Shown here one piece after another: positions 51,065-60,650 of a stretch of 64,000 bases of DNA. This stretch comes from a virus (taxonomy: Duplodnaviria; Heunggongvirae; Uroviricota; Caudoviricetes). Location: the IMG/VR virus record IMGVR_UViG_2687453623_000004. The stretch is one strand, 5' to 3'. The position numbers and the translations under genes are program-made. Numbering within the stretch: the stretch's first letter is position 1; every line of letters begins with the position of its first letter. The notes beneath the pieces were generated by a model that had not been told where the DNA came from, made no database searches, and saw only the letters and a list, made by a program, of their open reading frames with translations.

Positions 51065-51237
51065 TGTCAGGAGTCCTGAATAGTGATTAGAGGAGTCACA
51101 TGTCGGCATCAGTTTCCCGACGATACGCATCCTCCGCCATCAGTCCCGGATGGCTTATCACTGACACAACAGCACCTTAGCGAATCGCGGGGCGCGACTC
51201 AGTAGCCTTGCCGTGTATTCATCACGGCGAGGTATTC
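51065..51237. promoter_or_regulatory. divergent late promoter region between O and P
   Basis: Intergenic region between divergent capsid and terminase/portal operons; contains inverted repeat gccgtg-tattca-tcacggc at ~51199-51220. Confidence 0.35.
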
Positions 51238-53010
51238 ATGACCATCACCACAGACACCACTCTTTTACACGACCCGCGTCGTCAGGCGGCGCTGCTGTAC
51301 TGGCAGGGGTTTTCCGTGCCGCAGATTGCCGCCATGTTGCAGATGAAACGCCCGACGGTGCAGAGCTGGAAACAGCGCGACGGCTGGGACAGCGTTGCCC
51401 CCATCAGCCGTGTCGAAATGAGTCTGGAAGCGCGGCTGACCCAGCTCATCATCAAACCGCAGAAAACCGGCGGTGACTTCAAGGAAATTGACCTGCTGGG
51501 ACGTCAGATTGAACGACTGGCACGGGTCAACCGTTACAGTCAGACCGGCAACGAGGCAGACCTTAATCCGAACGTCGCTAACCGCAACAAAGGCGGGCGG
51601 CGCAAACCGAAAAAGAATTTTTTCAGTGACGAGGCCATCGAAAAGCTGGAGCAGATTTTCTTTGAGCAGTCTTTCGACTATCAGTTGCACTGGTATCGCG
51701 CCGGGCTTGAGCACCGCATCCGCGATATCCTGAAATCCCGCCAGATTGGCGCAACGTTTTATTTTTCCCGCGAGGCGCTGCTGCGCGCCCTGAAAACCGG
51801 TCATAACCAGATTTTTCTGTCGGCCAGTAAAACGCAGGCGTATGTGTTCCGCGAATACATCATCGCCTTTGCCCGTCTGGTTGACGTTGACCTGACCGGT
51901 GACCCGATTGTCCTGGGCAATAACGGCGCAAAACTGATTTTTCTCGGCACCAACTCCAACACCGCGCAGAGCCATAACGGCGACCTGTACGTCGACGAGA
52001 TTTTCTGGATCCCGAATTTTCAGGTACTGCGTAAGGTGGCATCAGGTATGGCCTCACAGAGCCACCTGCGCTCGACCTATTTCTCCACCCCGTCCACGCT
52101 GGCGCACGACGCCTACCCGTTCTGGTCGGGTGAACTGTTCAACCGGGGACGCGCCAGCGCCGCCGAACGCGTGGAAATCGACGTCAGTCATAACGCCCTT
52201 GCCGGAGGTCTTCTCTGTGCGGACGGCCAGTGGCGGCAGATTGTCACCATTGAGGACGCGCTGAAAGGCGGCTGCACGCTGTTCGACATTGAGCAGCTCA
52301 AACGCGAAAACAGCGCCGACGATTTTAAAAACCTGTTCATGTGTGAATTTGTTGACGACAAGGCGTCGGTGTTCCCGTTCGAGGAGCTGCAACGCTGCAT
52401 GGTCGACACTCTGGAAGAATGGGAAGACTACGCGCCGTTTGCCGCAAATCCGTTCGGCTCCCGCCCGGTATGGATTGGTTACGACCCGTCACACCGTGGC
52501 GACAGCGCCGGATGCGTGGTGCTGGCACCGCCGGTGGTGGCCGGTGGCAAATTCAGGATACTTGAGCGTCACCAGTGGAAAGGCATGGACTTTGCCACCC
52601 AGGCTGAATCCATCCGCAAACTCACCGAAAAATACAACGTCGAATACATCGGTATTGATGCCACCGGCCTTGGTGTCGGCGTGTTCCAGCTCGTGCGCTC
52701 GTTCTATCCCGCCGCGCGCGACATCCGCTACACGCCGGAAATGAAAACCGCAATGGTGCTCAAGGCAAAAGACGTCATCCGCCGTGGCTGTCTGGAATAT
52801 GACGTCAGCGCCACCGACATCACCAGCTCGTTTATGGCTATCCGCAAGACCATGACCAGCAGCGGACGCAGCGCCACCTATGAGGCCAGCCGCAGCGAGG
52901 AAGCCAGCCACGCCGACCTCGCCTGGGCGACCATGCACGCTCTGTTAAATGAGCCACTCACCGCCGGTATCAGCACTCCGCTGACATCCACCATTCTGGA
53001 GTTTTACTGA
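51238..53010 (+). CDS. P: terminase large (ATPase) subunit P
   Basis: 590 aa from ATG 51238 (MTITTDTTLLHDPRRQAALLYWQGFSVPQIAAMLQMKRPTVQSWKQRDGWD…). Confidence 0.9.
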   Translation: MTITTDTTLLHDPRRQAALLYWQGFSVPQIAAMLQMKRPTVQSWKQRDGWDSVAPISRVEMSLEARLTQLIIKPQKTGGDFKEIDLLGRQIERLARVNRYSQTGNEADLNPNVANRNKGGRRKPKKNFFSDEAIEKLEQIFFEQSFDYQLHWYRAGLEHRIRDILKSRQIGATFYFSREALLRALKTGHNQIFLSASKTQAYVFREYIIAFARLVDVDLTGDPIVLGNNGAKLIFLGTNSNTAQSHNGDLYVDEIFWIPNFQVLRKVASGMASQSHLRSTYFSTPSTLAHDAYPFWSGELFNRGRASAAERVEIDVSHNALAGGLLCADGQWRQIVTIEDALKGGCTLFDIEQLKRENSADDFKNLFMCEFVDDKASVFPFEELQRCMVDTLEEWEDYAPFAANPFGSRPVWIGYDPSHRGDSAGCVVLAPPVVAGGKFRILERHQWKGMDFATQAESIRKLTEKYNVEYIGIDATGLGVGVFQLVRSFYPAARDIRYTPEMKTAMVLKAKDVIRRGCLEYDVSATDITSSFMAIRKTMTSSGRSATYEASRSEEASHADLAWATMHALLNEPLTAGISTPLTSTILEFY

Positions 53011-54044
53011 TGAGCAAGAAAAAAGGGAAAACACCGCAACCTGCGGCAAAAAAAATGACCGCCAGCGCCCCGAAAATGGAGGCATTCACCTTTGGTGATC
53101 CGGTGCCGGTACTCGACCGCCGTGACATTCTGGATTATGTCGAATGTATCAGTAACGGCAGATGGTATGAACCCCCGGTCAGCTTTACCGGTCTGGCAAA
53201 AAGCCTGCGTGCTGCCGTGCATCACAGCTCACCGATTTACGTCAAACGTAATATTCTGGCTTCAACGTTTATCCCGCACCCGTGGCTTTCCCAGCAGGAT
53301 TTCAGCCGCTTTGTGCTGGATTTTCTGGTGTTCGGTAATGCGTTTCTGGAAAAGCGTTACAGCACTACCGGTAAGGTCATCAGACTGGAAACCTCACCGG
53401 CAAAATATACCCGCCGTGGCGTGGAGGAGGATGTTTACTGGTGGGTGCCGTCCTTCAACGAGCCGGCACCTTTCGCGCCCGGCTCCGTGTTTCATCTGCT
53501 GGAGCCGGATATTAATCAGGAGCTGTACGGCCTGCCGGAATATCTCAGCGGCCTTAACTCTGCCTGGCTGAATGAGTCGGCCACGCTGTTCCGCCGCAAG
53601 TATTACGAAAACGGCGCACATGCCGGATACATCATGTACGTCACCGATGCCGTGCAGGATCGCAACGATATCGAAATGCTTCGCGAAAACATGGTGAAGT
53701 CGAAAGGCCGCAACAACTTTAAAAACCTGTTTCTCTATGCCCCACAGGGAAAAGCCGACGGCATTAAAATTATCCCGCTCAGTGAAGTGGCGACGAAGGA
53801 CGATTTTTTTAATATCAAAAAAGCCAGCGCCGCTGACCTGCTGGACGCGCACCGCATCCCCTTTCAGTTGATGGGCGGCAAGCCGGAGAACGTCGGGTCG
53901 CTGGGTGATATTGAGAAAGTGGCTAAGGTCTTTGTCCGCAATGAGCTTATCCCGCTACAGGACAGGATCCGCGAGATAAACGGCTGGCTCGGTCAGGAGG
54001 TCATCCGCTTTAAAAACTACTCACTGGACACTGACAACGGCTGA
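53010..54044 (+). CDS. Q: portal (capsid vertex) protein Q
   Basis: 344-aa ORF MSKKKGKTPQPAAKKMTASAPKMEAFTFGDPVPVLDRRDILDYVECISNGRWYEPPVSFTG… matching P2 gpQ; ATGA coupling with P. Confidence 0.9.
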   Translation: MSKKKGKTPQPAAKKMTASAPKMEAFTFGDPVPVLDRRDILDYVECISNGRWYEPPVSFTGLAKSLRAAVHHSSPIYVKRNILASTFIPHPWLSQQDFSRFVLDFLVFGNAFLEKRYSTTGKVIRLETSPAKYTRRGVEEDVYWWVPSFNEPAPFAPGSVFHLLEPDINQELYGLPEYLSGLNSAWLNESATLFRRKYYENGAHAGYIMYVTDAVQDRNDIEMLRENMVKSKGRNNFKNLFLYAPQGKADGIKIIPLSEVATKDDFFNIKKASAADLLDAHRIPFQLMGGKPENVGSLGDIEKVAKVFVRNELIPLQDRIREINGWLGQEVIRFKNYSLDTDNG

Positions 54045-54213
54045 ACATCGCCGCCTGCGGGCGGCTTTTTTACATCCCGTCATCACGCCCTCACACGCTC
54101 ACCACCGCACAAAACACCCCGCAGACACACCAACGCCCCGGCGCACAATCTAAACGCCATCACGACGCGCTCAGACGCTGAAAAAATAAAATCAGCACCA
54201 CCGCCAGCGCGCA

Positions 54214-54232
54214 GTGCTTTCCCCGCCTCGCC
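54214..54232. other. cos: cos cohesive-end sequence (P2-type 19-mer)
   Basis: gtgctttccccgcctcgcc is the reverse complement of GGCGAGGCGGGGAAAGCAC, which I recall as the P2 19-nt cohesive end; ~170 bp beyond Q. Confidence 0.7.
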
Positions 54233-54336
54233 CGCCCGCTTCATGGGGCGGTTTTAATGCAGATGTATGAATCCGTCAAAACCATGCCGACACTGACGGC
54301 ACTCGAATATGAAAATAACGAATGAGGCATGCAAAC

Positions 54337-54363
54337 TAATGCATCTAATGCATCTAATGCATG
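54337..54363. repeat. three tandem copies of a 9-mer (TAATGCATC/TAATGCATC/TAATGCATG)
   Basis: Directly visible in the sequence, just 3' (minus strand) of the 139-aa cargo gene. Confidence 0.8.
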
Positions 54364-54369
54364 CAAGAT

Positions 54370-54789
54370 TTAATCATGCTCTAAAGGAGGAATATCAATG
54401 TCACTTAGTTGCAGAACCTTGCGGTAAGCCTCAAAAATTATTTGATGTATATTTTTTAAGTCAGCAAGCATTCTCTGCCTTCCTTCTGGAGTGAATTTAC
54501 CATCAGCATGTTTGCGATAAAACTCATGTGCCAAGTAGTTTCTGGCTTTAAGAGCATCTGACACATGCTCCAGTGTATCAGCATCCCCCACCATCCTTGA
54601 CTTCAGTGCGTAATTCAGTTTACCCAGCGTGTACTTATCCATTTCTAGAAACTGTTTTTTCAACGACGCTATATCCCCCCCTTGCTTCATATCATACTCA
54701 GTGAGGGCATTTATTAATTCAGTCTCCAATAATTGGGCAGCTTCCGATGCATAACCAAACTTCCAATACACAGTATCAAGCGTCACCAT
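54370..54789 (-). CDS. hypothetical protein, tin/old-position cargo (no family recognised)
   Basis: 139-aa ORF MVTLDTVYWKFGYASEAAQLLETELINALTEYDMKQGGDIASLKKQFLEMDKYTLGKLNYALKSRM… with RBS ggagaa ~8 nt upstream; AT-rich context. Confidence 0.5.
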   Translation of the reverse strand: MVTLDTVYWKFGYASEAAQLLETELINALTEYDMKQGGDIASLKKQFLEMDKYTLGKLNYALKSRMVGDADTLEHVSDALKARNYLAHEFYRKHADGKFTPEGRQRMLADLKNIHQIIFEAYRKVLQLSDIDIPPLEHD

Positions 54790-55192
54790 ATAACCTATTC
54801 TCCAGATAACAAACTCTATCCGAGATTAAGCCATAATACACAAATAAGTCTAACGCATCGCTGCACTCATTGTTCCCCCCCGCTAACACTAGAAACAAGT
54901 TTCACGGCTAGCGGCGTTCTCTATCATCTGTGTGATGACGGAGCCATTCTGGATGGACTGATATCGTTAAGCAACCCGTAATTCTCCCGGACTAATTGCC
55001 CTCCAACCAACGCATCAAGCATCAGATTTTCGTGCTTCATTATCTGCTGCCGACTGTGAACAAAAGCCATCAGTTTGATACTTTCAGTTGTATTAACTCA
55101 GACACCAACTGATAGGTTACATATCCAGTATTCAATCAGATCTGACAGTTAAGAGGGACGATAACATGACAACCACCGTAACTATTTGAAAG

Positions 55193-55969
55193 CTATTTAA
55201 TACGTATGAAATCTAAAGAGTATTTAATTGATGATTTCGTTGATTGAAACCATTTCAAATGCGACCACTCTGGGCCTGACAATAGAGTCAGTAGCGTTTT
55301 TTTATCTCTTTCCTTCATTCTTAACCCAAAAGCTATAGAATTGACCGCTAAAGGTTCAAATTTCCTTGCTCCAAAATTCTCCACAATCAATCGGCGCTCC
55401 CTTTCATATTTCCAACTTGTGTACTTTGTCGTTAAAATAGAAAGTAAAATATCCCCGCAAATATTATCAAACCCGTTAAGGCATTCATTATCCTCAAAAT
55501 AATGAATACGTTTAACAATATCATCAAAGGGATAATTATCCTGATATTCCACATCTGCTTCCAAAAAAGAAACCCCAGCTTTCTTCAAATACTCCTCTTT
55601 AAAGCCAATGCAAATACCTTTATGTTCATCGGCATAATGTGACCACATCAATTGATTTTTCCTCGCTTTACTAAAGGAACAAATTCCGACTTGCTGCAAT
55701 GACTGTTTAAGATATCTCTCATATTTAATTCTCATATCAAGAGGCAGTGGATAATGTTTCCAAACAGCATCAAGCACATTTGAAAATGAAGAATTTGCTT
55801 CAAAAGGATCATTAAGAGTATCTGGTTTTGCAAACCATAACTCACGATTCAATAACAGCTTCAGATTGTTTTTATCAAACTTACGATACTTAAATAAAAT
55901 TCCTGGCTTTGTTATGTGTATCACATCCTCTCCTGTTAATTCACAATTCTTATTAAAAACAACAAACAC
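55193..55969 (-). CDS. hypothetical protein, possibly DUF2971-like (start may be GTG at 55924)
   Basis: 258-aa frame; segment …ILFKYRKFDKNNLKLLLNRELWFAKPDTLNDPFE… resembles the N-terminal signature I associate with DUF2971; first codon is GTG, and an alternative GTG at 55924 has a better RBS (ggagagg). Confidence 0.45.
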   Translation of the reverse strand: MFVVFNKNCELTGEDVIHITKPGILFKYRKFDKNNLKLLLNRELWFAKPDTLNDPFEANSSFSNVLDAVWKHYPLPLDMRIKYERYLKQSLQQVGICSFSKARKNQLMWSHYADEHKGICIGFKEEYLKKAGVSFLEADVEYQDNYPFDDIVKRIHYFEDNECLNGFDNICGDILLSILTTKYTSWKYERERRLIVENFGARKFEPLAVNSIAFGLRMKERDKKTLLTLLSGPEWSHLKWFQSTKSSIKYSLDFIRIK

Positions 55970-56041
55970 TAAAAAAAATCATGAAAGGGGTGCATTAAAA
56001 ACACCCCTTAAGATCATTAAAACAGCATTAAATGCCGTTCG

Positions 56042-56548
56042 CTATAACTTTTCCTCCAATTCTTTTTCGTTTATTACTGTATACAACCTATTTATAAACG
56101 AGACATTTCTCCAAATAAGAACAATAACGCATGACAGTTGAGTCAGTAATATACTCAAGATATATACACAACTCACACCTTTAATAAGGTGACGATTGTT
56201 CGCATAGAAATCCGTACCGCGGAGAACAGCATTAAATGCGTAAAAAGCAATAATAAAAATTAATACAGTAGCGGACATAATGATAATAAGAATCATACCT
56301 TCTATGCGCTTCGCTTCACTTTTGCTTGCTAAAAAATCCACTTTTTCAGATTTCATCAAACCAGCGATTGCATTTGGATAGAGATAAGCTAGCCAAATAC
56401 CAGCAATTGCAAAAATCATCGCGGACGTATTTTGCAAAACACCAAGAAGATCAACAACATATGAATATTTGACGCTTTCTGAAATGCTAAAACCGCCAAC
56501 AAGCAGAACGAAGGCCATGAGAATCCCAATAAGGATCTTTATTATCAC
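56042..56548 (-). CDS. four-helix integral membrane protein (candidate effector), translationally coupled to the upstream gene
   Basis: 168-aa ORF starting with GTG 2 nt after the upstream TGA, with RBS ggagga inside the upstream gene's last codons; four hydrophobic segments. Confidence 0.6.
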   Translation of the reverse strand: MIIKILIGILMAFVLLVGGFSISESVKYSYVVDLLGVLQNTSAMIFAIAGIWLAYLYPNAIAGLMKSEKVDFLASKSEAKRIEGMILIIIMSATVLIFIIAFYAFNAVLRGTDFYANNRHLIKGVSCVYILSILLTQLSCVIVLIWRNVSFINRLYTVINEKELEEKL

Positions 56549-56549
56549 A

Positions 56550-57710
56550 TCATCCTCCTATAGCGACCTCATTGTTATTTCCCGAAGGTATAACTTGAGT
56601 TTTATCAATCTCATAACCATCGAGACCACTTACGAGTTCTTTTCGTTTATCATTAATTAACTCTGCCAATTTCTCAGCCGAGATATGTGCGTTATCATTT
56701 ACAGTATAAGTAGCATTCAAATAATCACGCATAACATATTCATCTAACCACTTAGTCTGCCCATTCTTACCATCCTGTTTGAAGCCGATATTGTTCCAAG
56801 AAGAGCCGAAAGCATAATCCTCTTCATAAAAATCGAAAAGTTCGTCAATTTGCTTTTCAGTTGGTCTTTCTTCAATAATTAACTCTATCTGTCGTTCTTT
56901 ATGAGTCTTAGGTACTTCATCACGTAATACAGGAAATTTATCAAAAGCCTTTACCCACCAAGCTCTTTTATCTGGAACTTTAGCTCCAATTGTATCTCTT
57001 ATTACAATATGTGTTATAGAGTCACGAATCTTCTTTATATTTATACGCCCAGCTTTTTTCATATACTGCTGCGCTTCAAATAAAAATCTTACTCGTGAAC
57101 TTCCGTCATCACTTTCAAATGTAACAACACTAAACTTTATGTCTTTCCCACCTGGATTTGGTCTGCATACTTCTGCAATTTTACGCCCGGGATATGGCAT
57201 TCTGAAATTAGCATAATCTCTAATATAGCGACTAAAAAGATAAGTGTCTGAGTTTGAGTGAGGGAAACGAATTGCAGCAAATTTATTGAACTCAGGGATG
57301 TACCAGTAATAACATGGCTTACCCCAAATATATTTAACCCCATCAGTCATATCATCCGAAAGCATCTTAACGTCACTAGATGATGAATTTACCTGTGAAT
57401 CTGGCGCAACCCCCTGAAGATTACCATTGCCATCAAGTTCTGATTTCCAAAGCACAAAAAAATAATCGCCTGTCTTTTCATCTTTATGCACACCTCGACA
57501 ATAAACCTTTTTCCGCAGTCTAGAGTCATCAACCAATGGTAGGGTTTCTTCAAAAGAACGAGAACAAACCCAGTTGGACAGGGAGTCTAATATATTTACA
57601 ATATCCGTGCTTTTTTGAACTTCATCCTTAAGATTGTAAAAACCAGCTTTCGTTACATCAAAAAATGTTAAGCGCCCTGCTTCTTCAGCCATGATACTAC
57701 CTTGCAACAT
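56550..57710 (-). CDS. hypothetical soluble protein (~380 aa), first gene of a two-gene cargo operon (no family recognised)
   Basis: 386-aa ORF (likely start at the second ATG, 57692, which has an upstream aagg) MLQGSIMAEEAGRLTFFDVTKAGFYNLKDEVQKSTDIVNILDSLSNWV…; ~390-bp AT-rich upstream intergenic region. Confidence 0.6.
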   Translation of the reverse strand: MLQGSIMAEEAGRLTFFDVTKAGFYNLKDEVQKSTDIVNILDSLSNWVCSRSFEETLPLVDDSRLRKKVYCRGVHKDEKTGDYFFVLWKSELDGNGNLQGVAPDSQVNSSSSDVKMLSDDMTDGVKYIWGKPCYYWYIPEFNKFAAIRFPHSNSDTYLFSRYIRDYANFRMPYPGRKIAEVCRPNPGGKDIKFSVVTFESDDGSSRVRFLFEAQQYMKKAGRINIKKIRDSITHIVIRDTIGAKVPDKRAWWVKAFDKFPVLRDEVPKTHKERQIELIIEERPTEKQIDELFDFYEEDYAFGSSWNNIGFKQDGKNGQTKWLDEYVMRDYLNATYTVNDNAHISAEKLAELINDKRKELVSGLDGYEIDKTQVIPSGNNNEVAIGG

Positions 57711-58105
57711 GTTTAAAATGACTACATTCTATACTTAGCAAGCAAAAGTGCTCACTGGTAATTTAAACAGCAGAAAACAACTGTTTATGCATGCAGTATC
57801 ATAACAAAGTTCCACGTCACAGCGAAAGATAAGCAAACTTAGGCATCTTAATTACATTAGAATCCAACTTAACTTAGATTTCCCTGCTCCATTTTCCCAC
57901 ACATCACATGCTTGTGGGAATGCAGAAGCATAAGACCAGCCATAACTCTTAGGTAGCTGACGTTGGTCAAAATAACCACGTTAAGCTTTGCCCTCAGGCA
58001 TATATGCATACAACTCTCAGAGCGGTTTACGGTTCCCATTCCATACTATAATCTTGGAATCAATCGATGATCTGATTAATCTCAGTAGTATATTCATGTC
58101 AATCA

Positions 58106-60385
58106 TCATTGATAATATGTTGAGAGTCCCGGCCATTCGTCAGCGACCGGATACATGAATTTTTTCCCGTCATAATTTACTGTTGCCCCACGCGCCAGCG
58201 CCTCAAGCTCCCATCGCTGCGGCCTGATACCGTTCTGAGCAAGGTCAACGCGGATACGGGTAATTTGCAATCGTTCCGACCGGCTCAGTCTGGCCGATGG
58301 TGCAATTTCATGTGGTTTTAACGTGCTTCCGTTTCTTTGCTGGCGGTTTGGTCTTCTCAGTCCGTGTTTTAATGCCCCCCTGAGCGCCCTCACGACCTCC
58401 GGGTCACTCCATTCGATGACACCGTCATCAACCAGATTAAGCACTGCTGAGGCGTGTTCAGAAGGCGTGGGAGCCGGTGACGAAGTATCACCACCGGTGA
58501 GCTTTCCACAGTTATTGACAGGACTCCGAGGCGCGGCGATGCCGCTTTTTAAAGTCAAAGGCTCAACGACCGGAACTTTCGGTACAATGCGCCAGTCCGT
58601 CGTTCTGGTGATATGAATATGACGCGCGCCGAGATGCGGCGCGTAAATGCCGACCACTCTCTCGACTTCTTCCTCGTACTCGTTAACGTCATCCGACGGG
58701 CTACGGGCGACCCTGACAGTCTGACAATCGCGCGGGACATTTGCCCCACCCTGCGCGCTGATATACAACGCAAAATCACCACTGTCTGCGGCGGCGCGTG
58801 CAGCCTCGACGCGCTCGTCAAACTCATCAGCAATGCTGACGCCGCGAGGCAATTTGCGTAGTTCACGGTAAGCCCCCATTGTCGGCAGGCCAACCGTTTT
58901 AAATTGCGGAATGCGCCACGTTGACGCCCATGCGGTAACAGCCGCGGCAGTATCTTTCAGCGGTCTGCCGGTATCGTTATCGAGCTGCCCATCCAGTGCA
59001 TAGCCGTCGATATTTTTTGAGATGTATTTCGCGATATACCCCGCAGCACCGCCCCGATTAAGATGTTTTGCCTGAAAACGGTTTCGCGCGGCACCTCTTT
59101 CGTCGCCATCCTCTTTGAGCGCATAGCGACGCATGATTTCGATAATCTGGTTACGCTGGCGTGGATTACAAAAAAGCATCATATGCCAGTGTGGCGTTCC
59201 GTCATGGTGTGGCTCGACGACACGCAAACCGTAGGCCTGTAAATCATTATCCTTGAATGCCGTGCGCATCAGGCTCCAGATACGGCAGAGATAACGCTGC
59301 GCATCCTTTGGATTAAATGCCTCATCGTTCCAGCCGTGATTAAGCTGAACGGTTTTACTTTCGCCTTTTCCGACCTGACGTGTCGGGTGATACTTTGACG
59401 GTGCGGTCAGCGTGATAAACATCCCCACATCACCCTCTGCGGCGGCGTAACGCTCAATACCGGCGATGGTGTTCATCAGCTCCATCCGGCGAATTTCTGG
59501 ATTAGAAATACTGCCCATCACCTTACTGATAAGGTCGATGCGCTCGCCGGTTTCCCTGTTTTCAAGGTCACACGATTTAAGAAATTCCAGATTTGCCTGG
59601 CGGCGTGCACGCACATCACGAATGGCGTGTTTACTGGCATAAGGTGAGCGGTCTTTATTAACCTCCCCGACAGCTATCAGTAACGCTTCATGCCAGCGCA
59701 TACGCTGTCCTTTAAGCTGATGAGTCCACCACTCATCATTAAACAGACGGGCAATGGCAGAATATGCCTGCCTCGTGGTCATCTGTCCTTTACGGTATTT
59801 TTTCCAGTAGAGCGGGGAAATATTGAAAGCACGTGCAGCGCCAGCAACATGACCATACAGATGCGCCTGCGCCTCATCCGTAAACAGCGATTCTTTTTCG
59901 CCATGTGCATCAACCCATGCATCGCAGAGTTCCTCATACATCATGAAAAGCTGCGATGAAATACGGGCGGCAAACTTTTTCAGCTCCTTGTCATTCATCC
60001 CCGGCAGACGCGCATAATGGTCACGCTCTGTCAGAAACAGCAACGACGCGTCGGTGTTCATTTCATGGCGCTGATTAACGCGCTCAATGCGCGGCCATAA
60101 ACGACGCTGAAAAGTGGATGTGAGGAAATAAAACCCGTGCACCGGGCTTTTAGTGCGCCGGATGTAGTCGTAGCGTGAAGTAAACAGCGAGCGCAAAAAA
60201 TAAGGCAGGCGGTTAATCGTGGATAAAACACCTTGCACCTGACGCATCTCGTCACGTGTAAGGGGTCTTTCGCGCCCGACAGCCTCGCGTGGCGCGTTCC
60301 ATGCATAAGCACCGGTAAACGTCTTACCGGTGCCTGCGGCAAATGCTGACGGAGGGACAAAACGCCCGGAGGCTTTAACGGCCAT
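58106..60385 (-). CDS. A: replication initiation protein A (rolling-circle nickase)
   Basis: ~760 aa from ATG 60385 (MAVKASGRFVPPSAFAAGTGKTFTGAYAWNAPREAVGRERPLTRDEMRQVQGVLSTINRLPYF…), matching P2 gpA. Confidence 0.9.
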   Translation of the reverse strand: MAVKASGRFVPPSAFAAGTGKTFTGAYAWNAPREAVGRERPLTRDEMRQVQGVLSTINRLPYFLRSLFTSRYDYIRRTKSPVHGFYFLTSTFQRRLWPRIERVNQRHEMNTDASLLFLTERDHYARLPGMNDKELKKFAARISSQLFMMYEELCDAWVDAHGEKESLFTDEAQAHLYGHVAGAARAFNISPLYWKKYRKGQMTTRQAYSAIARLFNDEWWTHQLKGQRMRWHEALLIAVGEVNKDRSPYASKHAIRDVRARRQANLEFLKSCDLENRETGERIDLISKVMGSISNPEIRRMELMNTIAGIERYAAAEGDVGMFITLTAPSKYHPTRQVGKGESKTVQLNHGWNDEAFNPKDAQRYLCRIWSLMRTAFKDNDLQAYGLRVVEPHHDGTPHWHMMLFCNPRQRNQIIEIMRRYALKEDGDERGAARNRFQAKHLNRGGAAGYIAKYISKNIDGYALDGQLDNDTGRPLKDTAAAVTAWASTWRIPQFKTVGLPTMGAYRELRKLPRGVSIADEFDERVEAARAAADSGDFALYISAQGGANVPRDCQTVRVARSPSDDVNEYEEEVERVVGIYAPHLGARHIHITRTTDWRIVPKVPVVEPLTLKSGIAAPRSPVNNCGKLTGGDTSSPAPTPSEHASAVLNLVDDGVIEWSDPEVVRALRGALKHGLRRPNRQQRNGSTLKPHEIAPSARLSRSERLQITRIRVDLAQNGIRPQRWELEALARGATVNYDGKKFMYPVADEWPGLSTYYQ

Positions 60386-60650
60386 ATGAGCCCAAAGCCT
60401 CTGAACAACGCTTGCTGAGTTGCTCAACCTGCGCGTTTAAATCAGCAAAAGACTTTGCGCTTCCGGTCAGAATATCGTGATGCATCAGGCCGGAAACGAG
60501 CTGGCTTAATTTCGGGTAATAACCAACCACCGCCAACCATTCCTGACCGGCGTTTTTACCGCTTTCCGCTCTCTTTTTCTCGTGGAGAATAAACTGAAAG
60601 CTGTCACTGGTAACGACATAACGTTCGCCAATTTCAATACGAATACTCAT
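60375..60650 (-). CDS. hypothetical protein (P2 orf83 position)
   Basis: 91-aa ORF in the early operon, overlapping the start of A. Confidence 0.5.
   Translation of the reverse strand: MSIRIEIGERYVVTSDSFQFILHEKKRAESGKNAGQEWLAVVGYYPKLSQLVSGLMHHDILTGSAKSFADLNAQVEQLSKRCSEALGSYGR

Follow-up and report, generated by a model that had tools for sequence, protein, structure and literature searches.

Probably Separable Candidate Defence Modules in the P2 Hotspot of an Escherichia coli Prophage: A DUF2971 Gene, Its PDC-M18 Neighbours and a cos-Adjacent 139-Residue Protein

Introduction

When candidate defence genes lie side by side in a phage cargo locus, do they form one system, or are they separate modules that travel together? 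This question is raised by a stretch of 64,000 nucleotides (nt) from a virus of the Caudoviricetes (IMG/VR virus record IMGVR_UViG_2687453623_000004), called the window below. Between 54.2 and 58.1 kb it holds the variable cargo of a P2-like prophage of Escherichia coli. This segment carries, on the minus strand, a coupled gene pair of the candidate defence type PDC-M18, a gene for a DUF2971 protein, a spacer, and a gene for a protein of 139 amino acids (aa). The pair and the DUF2971 gene together are referred to as the trio. An earlier sequence-only reading had left open whether the DUF2971 and 139-aa genes belong to the same system as the pair or are independent cargo.

The answer favoured here is that the locus probably holds three separable modules, which are movable defence-type cargo in the P2 hotspot, and that the spacer is a recombination scar. 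As it stands, the finding is an already catalogued candidate locus with a predicted anti-phage role. What stands out from the ordinary is that the trio has long stayed linked and that the 139-aa protein belongs to a large, uncharacterised family.

Distribution of the Modules

The DUF2971 gene and the PDC-M18 pair were compared by the neighbourhoods of their homologues. In a scan with one genome per species, the two genes of the pair (M18A and M18B) and the 139-aa gene were absent within 8 kb of all 80 DUF2971-homologue loci. Seven DUF2971 orthologues at 47–66% identity had mutually unrelated neighbours. About 100 metagenomic and viral loci with M18A at up to 71% identity kept the transmembrane (TM) partner and were without DUF2971, with the exception of one locus (L141). 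PDC-M18 has also been described as a two-gene cassette in P4 satellite hotspots (PMC11754643). Stand-alone DUF2971 genes were seen for relatives at up to 67% identity, while the lineage of the window was always accompanied by PDC-M18. Most likely, the pair and the DUF2971 gene are each a self-sufficient module, and the two travel together in one sublineage, in which the DUF2971 gene is stably linked to the pair.

In the exceptional locus (L141, 4950–8664), an M18A homologue (29% identity) and its TM partner were followed 1.7 kb downstream by a remote DUF2971 open reading frame (ORF; E = 6.6e-13).

The 139-aa gene was present in 30 of 5426 complete E. coli genomes: 17 carried it with the trio and 13 without. 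Of the trio-less copies, 12 lay beside a gene for a 443-aa HNH protein and one had only a DUF3850 gene and a small gene upstream. On viral contigs the 139-aa gene was always the last gene before cos and gene Q, and on one of them (L213) it was the sole cargo gene. Since it occurs with the trio, with the HNH protein, with the small gene (gp37) only, or alone, the 139-aa gene is independent of the DUF2971 and M18 systems. It is a stand-alone, cos-adjacent cargo module. A role of its product as antitoxin or partner of the DUF2971 protein was rejected, because each gene occurs without the other. Thus, the alternative of independent cargo is clear for the 139-aa gene and is favoured for the DUF2971 gene, with the linkage in this sublineage as its qualification.

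Identification of the DUF2971 Protein

The longest ORF of the DUF2971 gene was located at 55193–55969 on the minus strand; with its first GTG as start, it encoded 258 aa. GTG 55924 was favoured as the start by RefSeq and by about 100 homologues (239–243 aa), giving a gene at 55193–55924 and a protein of 243 aa. The sequence AGGAGAGG, read directly from the DNA, lies four bases upstream of GTG 55924. GTG 55969 was rejected as the start because of the length of the homologues and the strong Shine-Dalgarno sequence before GTG 55924. The gap of 72 bp to the stop of the membrane-protein gene (56042), given by the sequence-only reading, is correct for the longest ORF; it is 117 nt from the favoured start.

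The peptides that had led to the naming of DUF2971 were found in the translation, and the family was borne out by the Pfam scan: PF11185 scored 43.4 bits against a curated gathering cut-off of 22 and was covered from profile position 1 to 89 of 89. The RefSeq name of the protein is DUF2971 domain-containing. PADLOC assigned it to PDC-S31, a single-gene defence candidate, with E = 5.4e-47 to PDLC04990 over most of its length, and four other PDC-S31 models also matched. PDC-S31 is itself a candidate from defence-island context, and no paper in the literature library searched mentions it. Consistent with a single-gene candidate, the orthologues have no conserved neighbour. Both ORFs proposed earlier, this one and that of the 139-aa protein, are present on the minus strand and conserved, with 210 homologous clusters for DUF2971 and 1900 for the 139-aa family.

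In an alignment of 27 homologues (243-aa numbering), K12, R14, W30, N38, D39, F41, G80, S85, Y127 and Q128 were invariant, as were the block N90–H101 (NQLMWxHYxDxH) and the segment K167...W171-x-Y173-E174-x-E176-x-R178. The invariant residues thus included an ExE motif (E174, E176) together with R14, S85, H96 and Y97. According to a survey, DUF2971 belongs to the ADP-ribosyltransferase superfamily, close to DarT and AbiGi, and its conserved features are a Tyr and an ExE motif (PMC12522546). The invariant E174-x-E176, R14, S85, H96 and Y97 of the window protein agreed with this description and may be the catalytic H/R–Y/S–E residues of the NAD+ pocket. Its model contained the ADP-ribosyltransferase core fold. 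The results suggested that the DUF2971 protein has a DarT-like ADP-ribosyltransferase fold, as predicted from the model. The view that DUF2971 is of unknown function is therefore outdated, given this predicted fold (PMC12522546) and the anti-phage activity of a family member, Aristaios (PMC11381338).

Aristaios is a single-gene DUF2971 anti-phage protein of 316 aa encoded on a Lactococcus plasmid (pUCCL641), and was validated as an abortive-infection type (Grafakou et al. 2024, PMC11381338). It has been reported to impair phage transcription (PMC13064643). Like the window gene, it is a single gene of the DUF2971 family on a mobile element, with an ADP-ribosyltransferase-fold AlphaFold model. 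It differs in coming from another phylum and in its length (316 vs 243 aa). The likeness concerns Pfam family and fold. Aristaios is experimentally anti-phage, whereas the window gene is predicted only and is linked to a PDC-M18 pair. The DUF2971 gene can be identified, at the level of prediction, as a further member of the PDC-S31 or Aristaios-like group of ADP-ribosyltransferase-fold defence proteins. DarT, the single-stranded DNA thymidine ADP-ribosyltransferase of DarTG, was 9–13% identical to the window protein, which has large helical inserts.

More distant homologues were found in other settings. DUF2971 paralogues at 25–35% identity occurred on 571 plasmid records, many of them from Klebsiella, Enterobacter, Escherichia and Salmonella and of about 100–115 kb. 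In Pseudoalteromonas luteoviolacea, Colwellia psychrerythraea and a Rheinheimera metagenome-assembled genome (L011, 7995–13090; L012, L013, L014), a DUF2971/PDC-S31 homologue lay directly upstream of tnsA. These homologues were 31–36% identical to the window protein and overlapped tnsA by about 10 nt. The arrangement, a Tn7-like operon tnsA-tnsB-tnsC(TniB)-tniQ with DUF2971 upstream, was kept across the three genera.

Properties of the 139-aa Protein

The 139-aa gene lies at 54370–54789 on the minus strand. Its product shared 76% identity with gp38 (orf38) of Salmonella phage PSP3; in that genome, orf38 is the gene nearest the right end. It matched no Pfam, NCBIfam or PADLOC model; the sole family match was phrog_12893, whose function is not assigned. 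In a family profile search, 1900 clusters (50% identity) were obtained at E ≤ 0.001, which points to a large, unnamed family. Relatives at about 40% identity were located away from cos, one of them on a contig resembling a plasmid or an integrative and conjugative element, beside GmrSD, type I HsdR and VapC.

Residues conserved in at least 90% of 40 diverse members were Q19, E22, T54, G56, R83, N84, L86, H88, F90, G103, M107 and L111. The window protein reads R83-N84-Y-L-A-H88, and the R, N and H of this motif (RNxLxH) were invariant in 18 homologues and conserved in at least 90% of the 40 diverse ones. We take RNxLxH to have the form of the HEPN Rx4-6H motif. The structural model was all-helical with a predicted local distance difference test (pLDDT) score of 93.

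Searches for a known HEPN family gave no match. Foldseek of the model against the PDB returned nothing below E 0.1, and the structural matches to HEPN were no better than those to generic helix bundles. A Pfam scan of 18 family members at E ≤ 10 gave noise alone. Family profiles from two alignments gave chance matches only against the PDB, with no HEPN family among them. The minimal HEPN RNases (HepT of HepT-MntA, AF0298-type) showed no sequence or profile match to the 139-aa protein, and the gene has no MNT-type antitoxin neighbour. The best single hypothesis, held at even chances or slightly less, is that the 139-aa protein would be a HEPN-like RNase.

Two longer family members were observed. 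P0327 (331 aa) is a tandem-duplicated member with two RNxLAH motifs. P0235 (279 aa) is a member fused to a C-terminal HepT-like (PF01934) HEPN domain, which scored 25.1 bits against a cut-off of 23.5; hhalign of the diverse-family alignment against this C-terminus detected no similarity.

The 443-aa protein found beside trio-less copies has a C-terminal HNH_2 domain, and its gene lies 91 nt upstream of the 139-aa gene (L002, 6312–8154; L209, L210). No other cargo genes accompanied these two in 12 complete E. coli genomes and in several viral contigs; they may form a two-gene unit.

Structure of the Spacer

The spacer between the DUF2971 and 139-aa genes, put at about 400 bp before, measured 403 nt (54790–55192). 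Three elements and a junction were distinguished in it. The ORF of 48 codons at 54924–55070 (minus strand) is, by alignment and translation, a 5'-truncated copy of a small gene of 67–69 aa (PSP3 orf37 family). Nucleotides 54850–55093 were about 76% identical to a segment in about 385 E. coli genomes; there the intact small gene (a 67–69-aa hypothetical) lies at the proximal hotspot border, next after A-DUF3850 (or DinI). The window copy is without the first 17–20 codons and stays open with an in-frame 1-codon deletion. The ratio of nonsynonymous to synonymous substitution rates (dN/dS) was 0.04–0.36 among intact copies and about 0.5 for the window copy against intact ones, at 50–56% amino-acid identity. 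The window copy is probably a decaying remnant.

Directly 3' of the small-ORF stop lies a stem-loop at 54878–54916 (minus strand), a weakened copy of a P2-like phage hairpin. It has no U-tract. The inverted repeat CCGCTA/TAGCGG pointed out in the sequence-only reading was located inside it, at 54880–54885 and 54909–54914; taken alone it is unremarkable, being one of seven short inverted repeats in the 403 nt. Across 12 phage and prophage sequences the hairpin was conserved, and compensatory changes were seen in 5 of its 10 predicted pairs. It folded best as minus-strand RNA, with −18.1 kcal/mol in the window, −22.8 in PSP3 and −37.8 (z −5.4) in strain 98205; the window hairpin had fold z-scores of −2.1 (minus strand) and −0.5 (plus strand). 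The hairpin may lie at the end of the early operon, or be an insulator or processing site.

The remaining 88 nt between the hairpin and the 139-aa start (54790–54877, minus strand) form a leader that is near-identical to the PSP3 gp37–gp38 intergenic region. Megablast matches to other 139-aa-carrying prophages reached 54866. The leader presumably holds the ribosome-binding site and the promoter of the 139-aa gene. At the other end of the spacer, 55071–55192 is junction sequence between the small-gene remnant and the trio, with no feature identified. Homology to other hotspots ended near 55093 and homology to the trio of strain NH-21 began at 55199. The sequence between them (55094–55198) matched neither and looks like a recombination junction. 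The small RNA suggested earlier for the spacer found no support: Rfam gave no match on 54000–58200 at E ≤ 1, and the spacer consists mainly of the truncated small gene, its 3' hairpin and the conserved leader.

Elsewhere, the small gene with a strong 3' stem-loop (L084, 5072–5278; L085, 4071–4226; L218–L223) stood at the A-proximal edge in about 400 E. coli genomes, adjoining many different cargo genes. The window copy and a truncated copy in strain JJ2434 begin at almost the same position, and this suggests a junction at which recombination recurs. The 51-aa remnant of JJ2434 bears the RefSeq name 'meiotically up-regulated 80 protein', which looks like a misannotation.

The PDC-M18 Pair

The upstream gene of the pair, PDC-M18A (56550–57692, minus strand), encodes 380 aa and was assigned by PADLOC with E = 9.7e-41; it contains no Pfam domain. 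The downstream gene, PDC-M18B (56042–56518, minus strand; PADLOC E = 9.5e-20), encodes a membrane protein with 3–4 predicted TM helices. An M18A gene with an adjacent M18B membrane-protein gene is the arrangement of PDC-M18. In nearly all of about 100 loci, M18A was followed by a TM partner (3–5 TM) at a gap of −52 to +29 nt, mostly −7 to +16. The pair is widespread, with 112 related loci retrieved and a very constant architecture. Among the invariant residues of M18A are W, Y, H and E, as in its YYW and ITH motifs.

Position in the P2-like Prophage

The cargo lies between replication gene A and cos/portal gene Q. Gene A, a replication endonuclease of 773 aa, was located at 58106–60427 on the minus strand, portal gene Q at 53010–54044 and large terminase gene P at 51208–53010, both on the plus strand; these assignments came from ORFs and the RefSeq annotation of identical DNA. 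ORFs of the P2 family for capsid scaffold, major capsid and small terminase were found at 48.3–51.1 kb on the minus strand. The P2-type 19-nt cohesive end (cos) at 54214–54232 on the minus strand is an exact match to GGCGAGGCGGGGAAAGCAC, with a chance expectation of 0. It is the end of the phage genome and so the distal border of the cargo hotspot. A terminator scan placed hairpins resembling terminators of the Q transcript at 54050–54065 and 54232–54251.

In phage P2, old and tin occupy the cos-proximal A-to-cos interval. From the position of cos and of gene A, the cargo interval is therefore the old/tin locus of P2; the P2 proteins are unrelated to the window cargo. The A-to-Q interval was defined as an anti-phage defence hotspot by Rousset et al. 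2022 (PMC9122126). In agreement with P2 hotspot cargo, the genes of the window are placed between gpA and cos/gpQ, and the content varies between otherwise similar prophages. The entire 4.06-kb cargo was 100% identical in 17 of the 5426 complete E. coli genomes. The guanine-cytosine (GC) content was 32–38% for the three upstream genes, 41–43% for the spacer and 139-aa gene, and 50–58% for the phage backbone. The low-GC cargo is compositionally foreign to the backbone.

The closest counterpart of the cos-proximal part is PSP3 orf37-orf38. It shares the cos-adjacent position and the gp38 homologue, and the ORF, hairpin and leader of the spacer match gp37 and the gp37–gp38 intergenic region. It differs in that the gp37 homologue of the window is 5'-truncated and degenerating, and that tumA/tumB stand where the window has the trio.

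The locus has been catalogued as a candidate since 2022. WP_001576644, WP_001576647, WP_001576649 and WP_125093550 in Table S5A of Rousset et al. are exactly its four proteins (PMC9122126), and in Table S5B the pair is system 48 (82 loci) and this exact DUF2971 protein is system 71 (60 loci) (PMC9122126). The 139-aa sequence was not found in any Rousset supplementary file searched. Row 71 of Table S5B, which holds this DUF2971 sequence, is labelled 'Peptidase_M78/HTH_31/HTH_3'. The label mismatches the sequence; the probable cause is a shift of rows, either in the table as published or in its stored text.

Proposed Mechanism

Under the favoured explanation, the first module is the PDC-M18 pair, made up of the 380-aa protein and its translationally coupled partner with 3–4 TM helices. 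The second module would be the DUF2971 protein acting alone, for which we infer an anti-phage role. It would be inactive in the lysogen. On infection by another phage, it may use nicotinamide adenine dinucleotide (NAD+) to ADP-ribosylate nucleic acid or a component of gene expression, and phage development would be blocked by this modification. The third module, the 139-aa protein, may be a dimeric HEPN-like RNase with an exclusion function. The pair would not require DUF2971; each would be a unit of its own, linked long enough to move jointly between mobile elements.

The spacer would be a recombination scar, composed of the degenerating small gene, its 3' stem-loop (probably an early-operon end or insulator) and the 139-aa leader. 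The ancestral order may have been A, DUF3850 or Tum, small gene, hairpin, 139-aa gene and cos, as in PSP3 and E. coli 06-3462. The low-GC trio would then have entered downstream of A, and DUF3850 and the 5' end of the small gene would have been lost in the process.

Alternative Explanations

Several observations weigh against this explanation. This DUF2971 lineage and the PDC-M18 pair co-occurred in 18 of 18 cases in complete E. coli genomes. Four sequence variants of the trio are known whose proteins have diverged in parallel, at identities of 100%, 93%, 93% and 91% for M18A, 100%, 88%, 76% and 78% for M18B, and 100%, 83%, 77% and 75% for DUF2971. The contexts of the trio numbered at least six: the P2 hotspot, an IS1-flanked island (strain NH-21), a lambdoid prophage replication region, an integrase-adjacent island, and neighbourhoods that contained a D5-type primase, an Mrr nuclease or fimbrial genes. 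Neither gpA nor gpQ was found near the trio in any non-P2 context. Co-occurrence and co-divergence could mean functional coupling rather than mere linkage. The pair and DUF2971 could then be one three-gene system, with M18A as sensor, M18B as membrane component and DUF2971 as a second effector or a pair-dependent toxin. The persistence of the trio is notable against the otherwise rapid swap of hotspot content (PMC13586616), and the distant M18–DUF2971 locus L141 is a second, independent co-occurrence. Such a system is nevertheless unlikely. The pair and DUF2971 are each alone across most of their own diversity, and Aristaios acts as a single gene (PMC11381338). An intrinsic-terminator-like hairpin of 9 pairs with a T-run, called by the terminator scan at 55972–56009 on the minus strand, separates M18B from DUF2971 and was retained, with altered sequence, in 4 of 4 trio variants. 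The gap before DUF2971 is 117 nt, against 1 nt between M18A and M18B in the longest ORFs (31 nt with RefSeq starts). PADLOC and Rousset Table S5B, which are independent curations, both split the pair from DUF2971. The window DUF2971 and M18A sequences are absent from Rousset Table S2, the systems evaluated for defence activity; this is a further adverse point, and identity of the trio with the Rousset-validated 'three hypothetical proteins' system was rejected on the same absence. Further adverse points concern the predicted enzyme. The loop with the invariant WSHYADEH residues was modelled at low confidence, and residues 90–98 had a pLDDT below 50. The DUF2971 profile found no relative among PDB sequences and no sequence link to any solved ADP-ribosyltransferase. 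The neighbouring ORFs (PDC-M18B and the small-gene remnant) contained no macrodomain of the DarG antitoxin type, and membership of DarTG was rejected because this partner is not present. That DUF2971 is not anti-phage, and serves as a host-directed or inter-bacterial ADP-ribosylating effector like Legionella members or as a selfish addiction gene of a mobile element, is improbable. A Legionella survey predicts about 18% of DUF2971 proteins as effectors (PMC12522546), paralogues are frequent on plasmids, and the distant clade translationally coupled to tnsA suggests mobile-element roles. However, the protein showed no signal peptide or TM segment by crude hydropathy, and its gene lies in an established defence hotspot beside another defence candidate. 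It strongly matched a PADLOC candidate built from defence-island enrichment, and the sole tested family member is anti-phage.

The 139-aa protein could be non-enzymatic, as a regulatory or structural phage accessory (control of cos or late genes) or an anti-defence protein, with a coincidental resemblance of RNxLxH to HEPN. Its position beside cos is fixed in every P2-like phage examined, and no HEPN family is detectable from its sequence. We regard this as rather doubtful. A backbone role is at odds with its presence in just 30 of 5426 E. coli genomes when P2-like hotspots are very common, which indicates accessory cargo, and a cos-bound role with the relatives beside GmrSD, type I HsdR and VapC. 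Conservation falls on polar residues of catalytic type (R, N, H, E, Q, K), and both the tandem duplicate and the HepT fusion are in keeping with the dimer logic of HEPN. A spacer encoding a functional small RNA or small protein that regulates the neighbour genes is very improbable. The open 48-codon ORF with its in-frame deletion, the compensatory changes in the hairpin and the purifying selection on intact homologues are consistent with it. Against it stand the lack of an Rfam match, the loss of the first codons with relaxed constraint, the far weaker hairpin here than in relatives, and the many unrelated cargo genes that the element adjoins, by which it is not specific to these neighbours. 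The inverted repeat was rejected as a canonical intrinsic terminator, with a U-tract on neither strand and no call by the scan; this is a further point against the operon-end part of the scar explanation. Three separable modules with a recombination scar between the second and the third are thus retained as the preferred explanation. There is still an appreciable chance, short of even, that at least one of two stronger statements holds. The trio may be a functionally integrated unit, in which an antitoxin-less DarT-like enzyme is checked or triggered by a sensor and membrane pair; this would explain why the trio persisted while its proteins diverged by about 25% and its mobile-element context changed at least six times. 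Alternatively or in addition, the 139-aa protein may found an undescribed and very widespread family of minimal HEPN-like RNases used by P2-like phages as a cos-adjacent exclusion gene.

Significance

Protection of E. coli by the DUF2971 protein, if it occurs, would extend the only validated case, Aristaios of Lactococcus, to Enterobacteria and would make the gene a tractable model for antitoxin-less ADP-ribosyltransferase defence. By its persistence, the trio offers a natural test of mere linkage against cooperation between adjoining defence modules. The mechanism of cargo exchange at the P2 hotspot was called unresolved in recent work (PMC13586616); the point of exchange may be marked by the conserved small gene and its hairpin, which stand on the proximal side of the hotspot. 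A demonstrated activity for the 139-aa family would annotate many public proteins, in about 1900 clusters at 50% identity.

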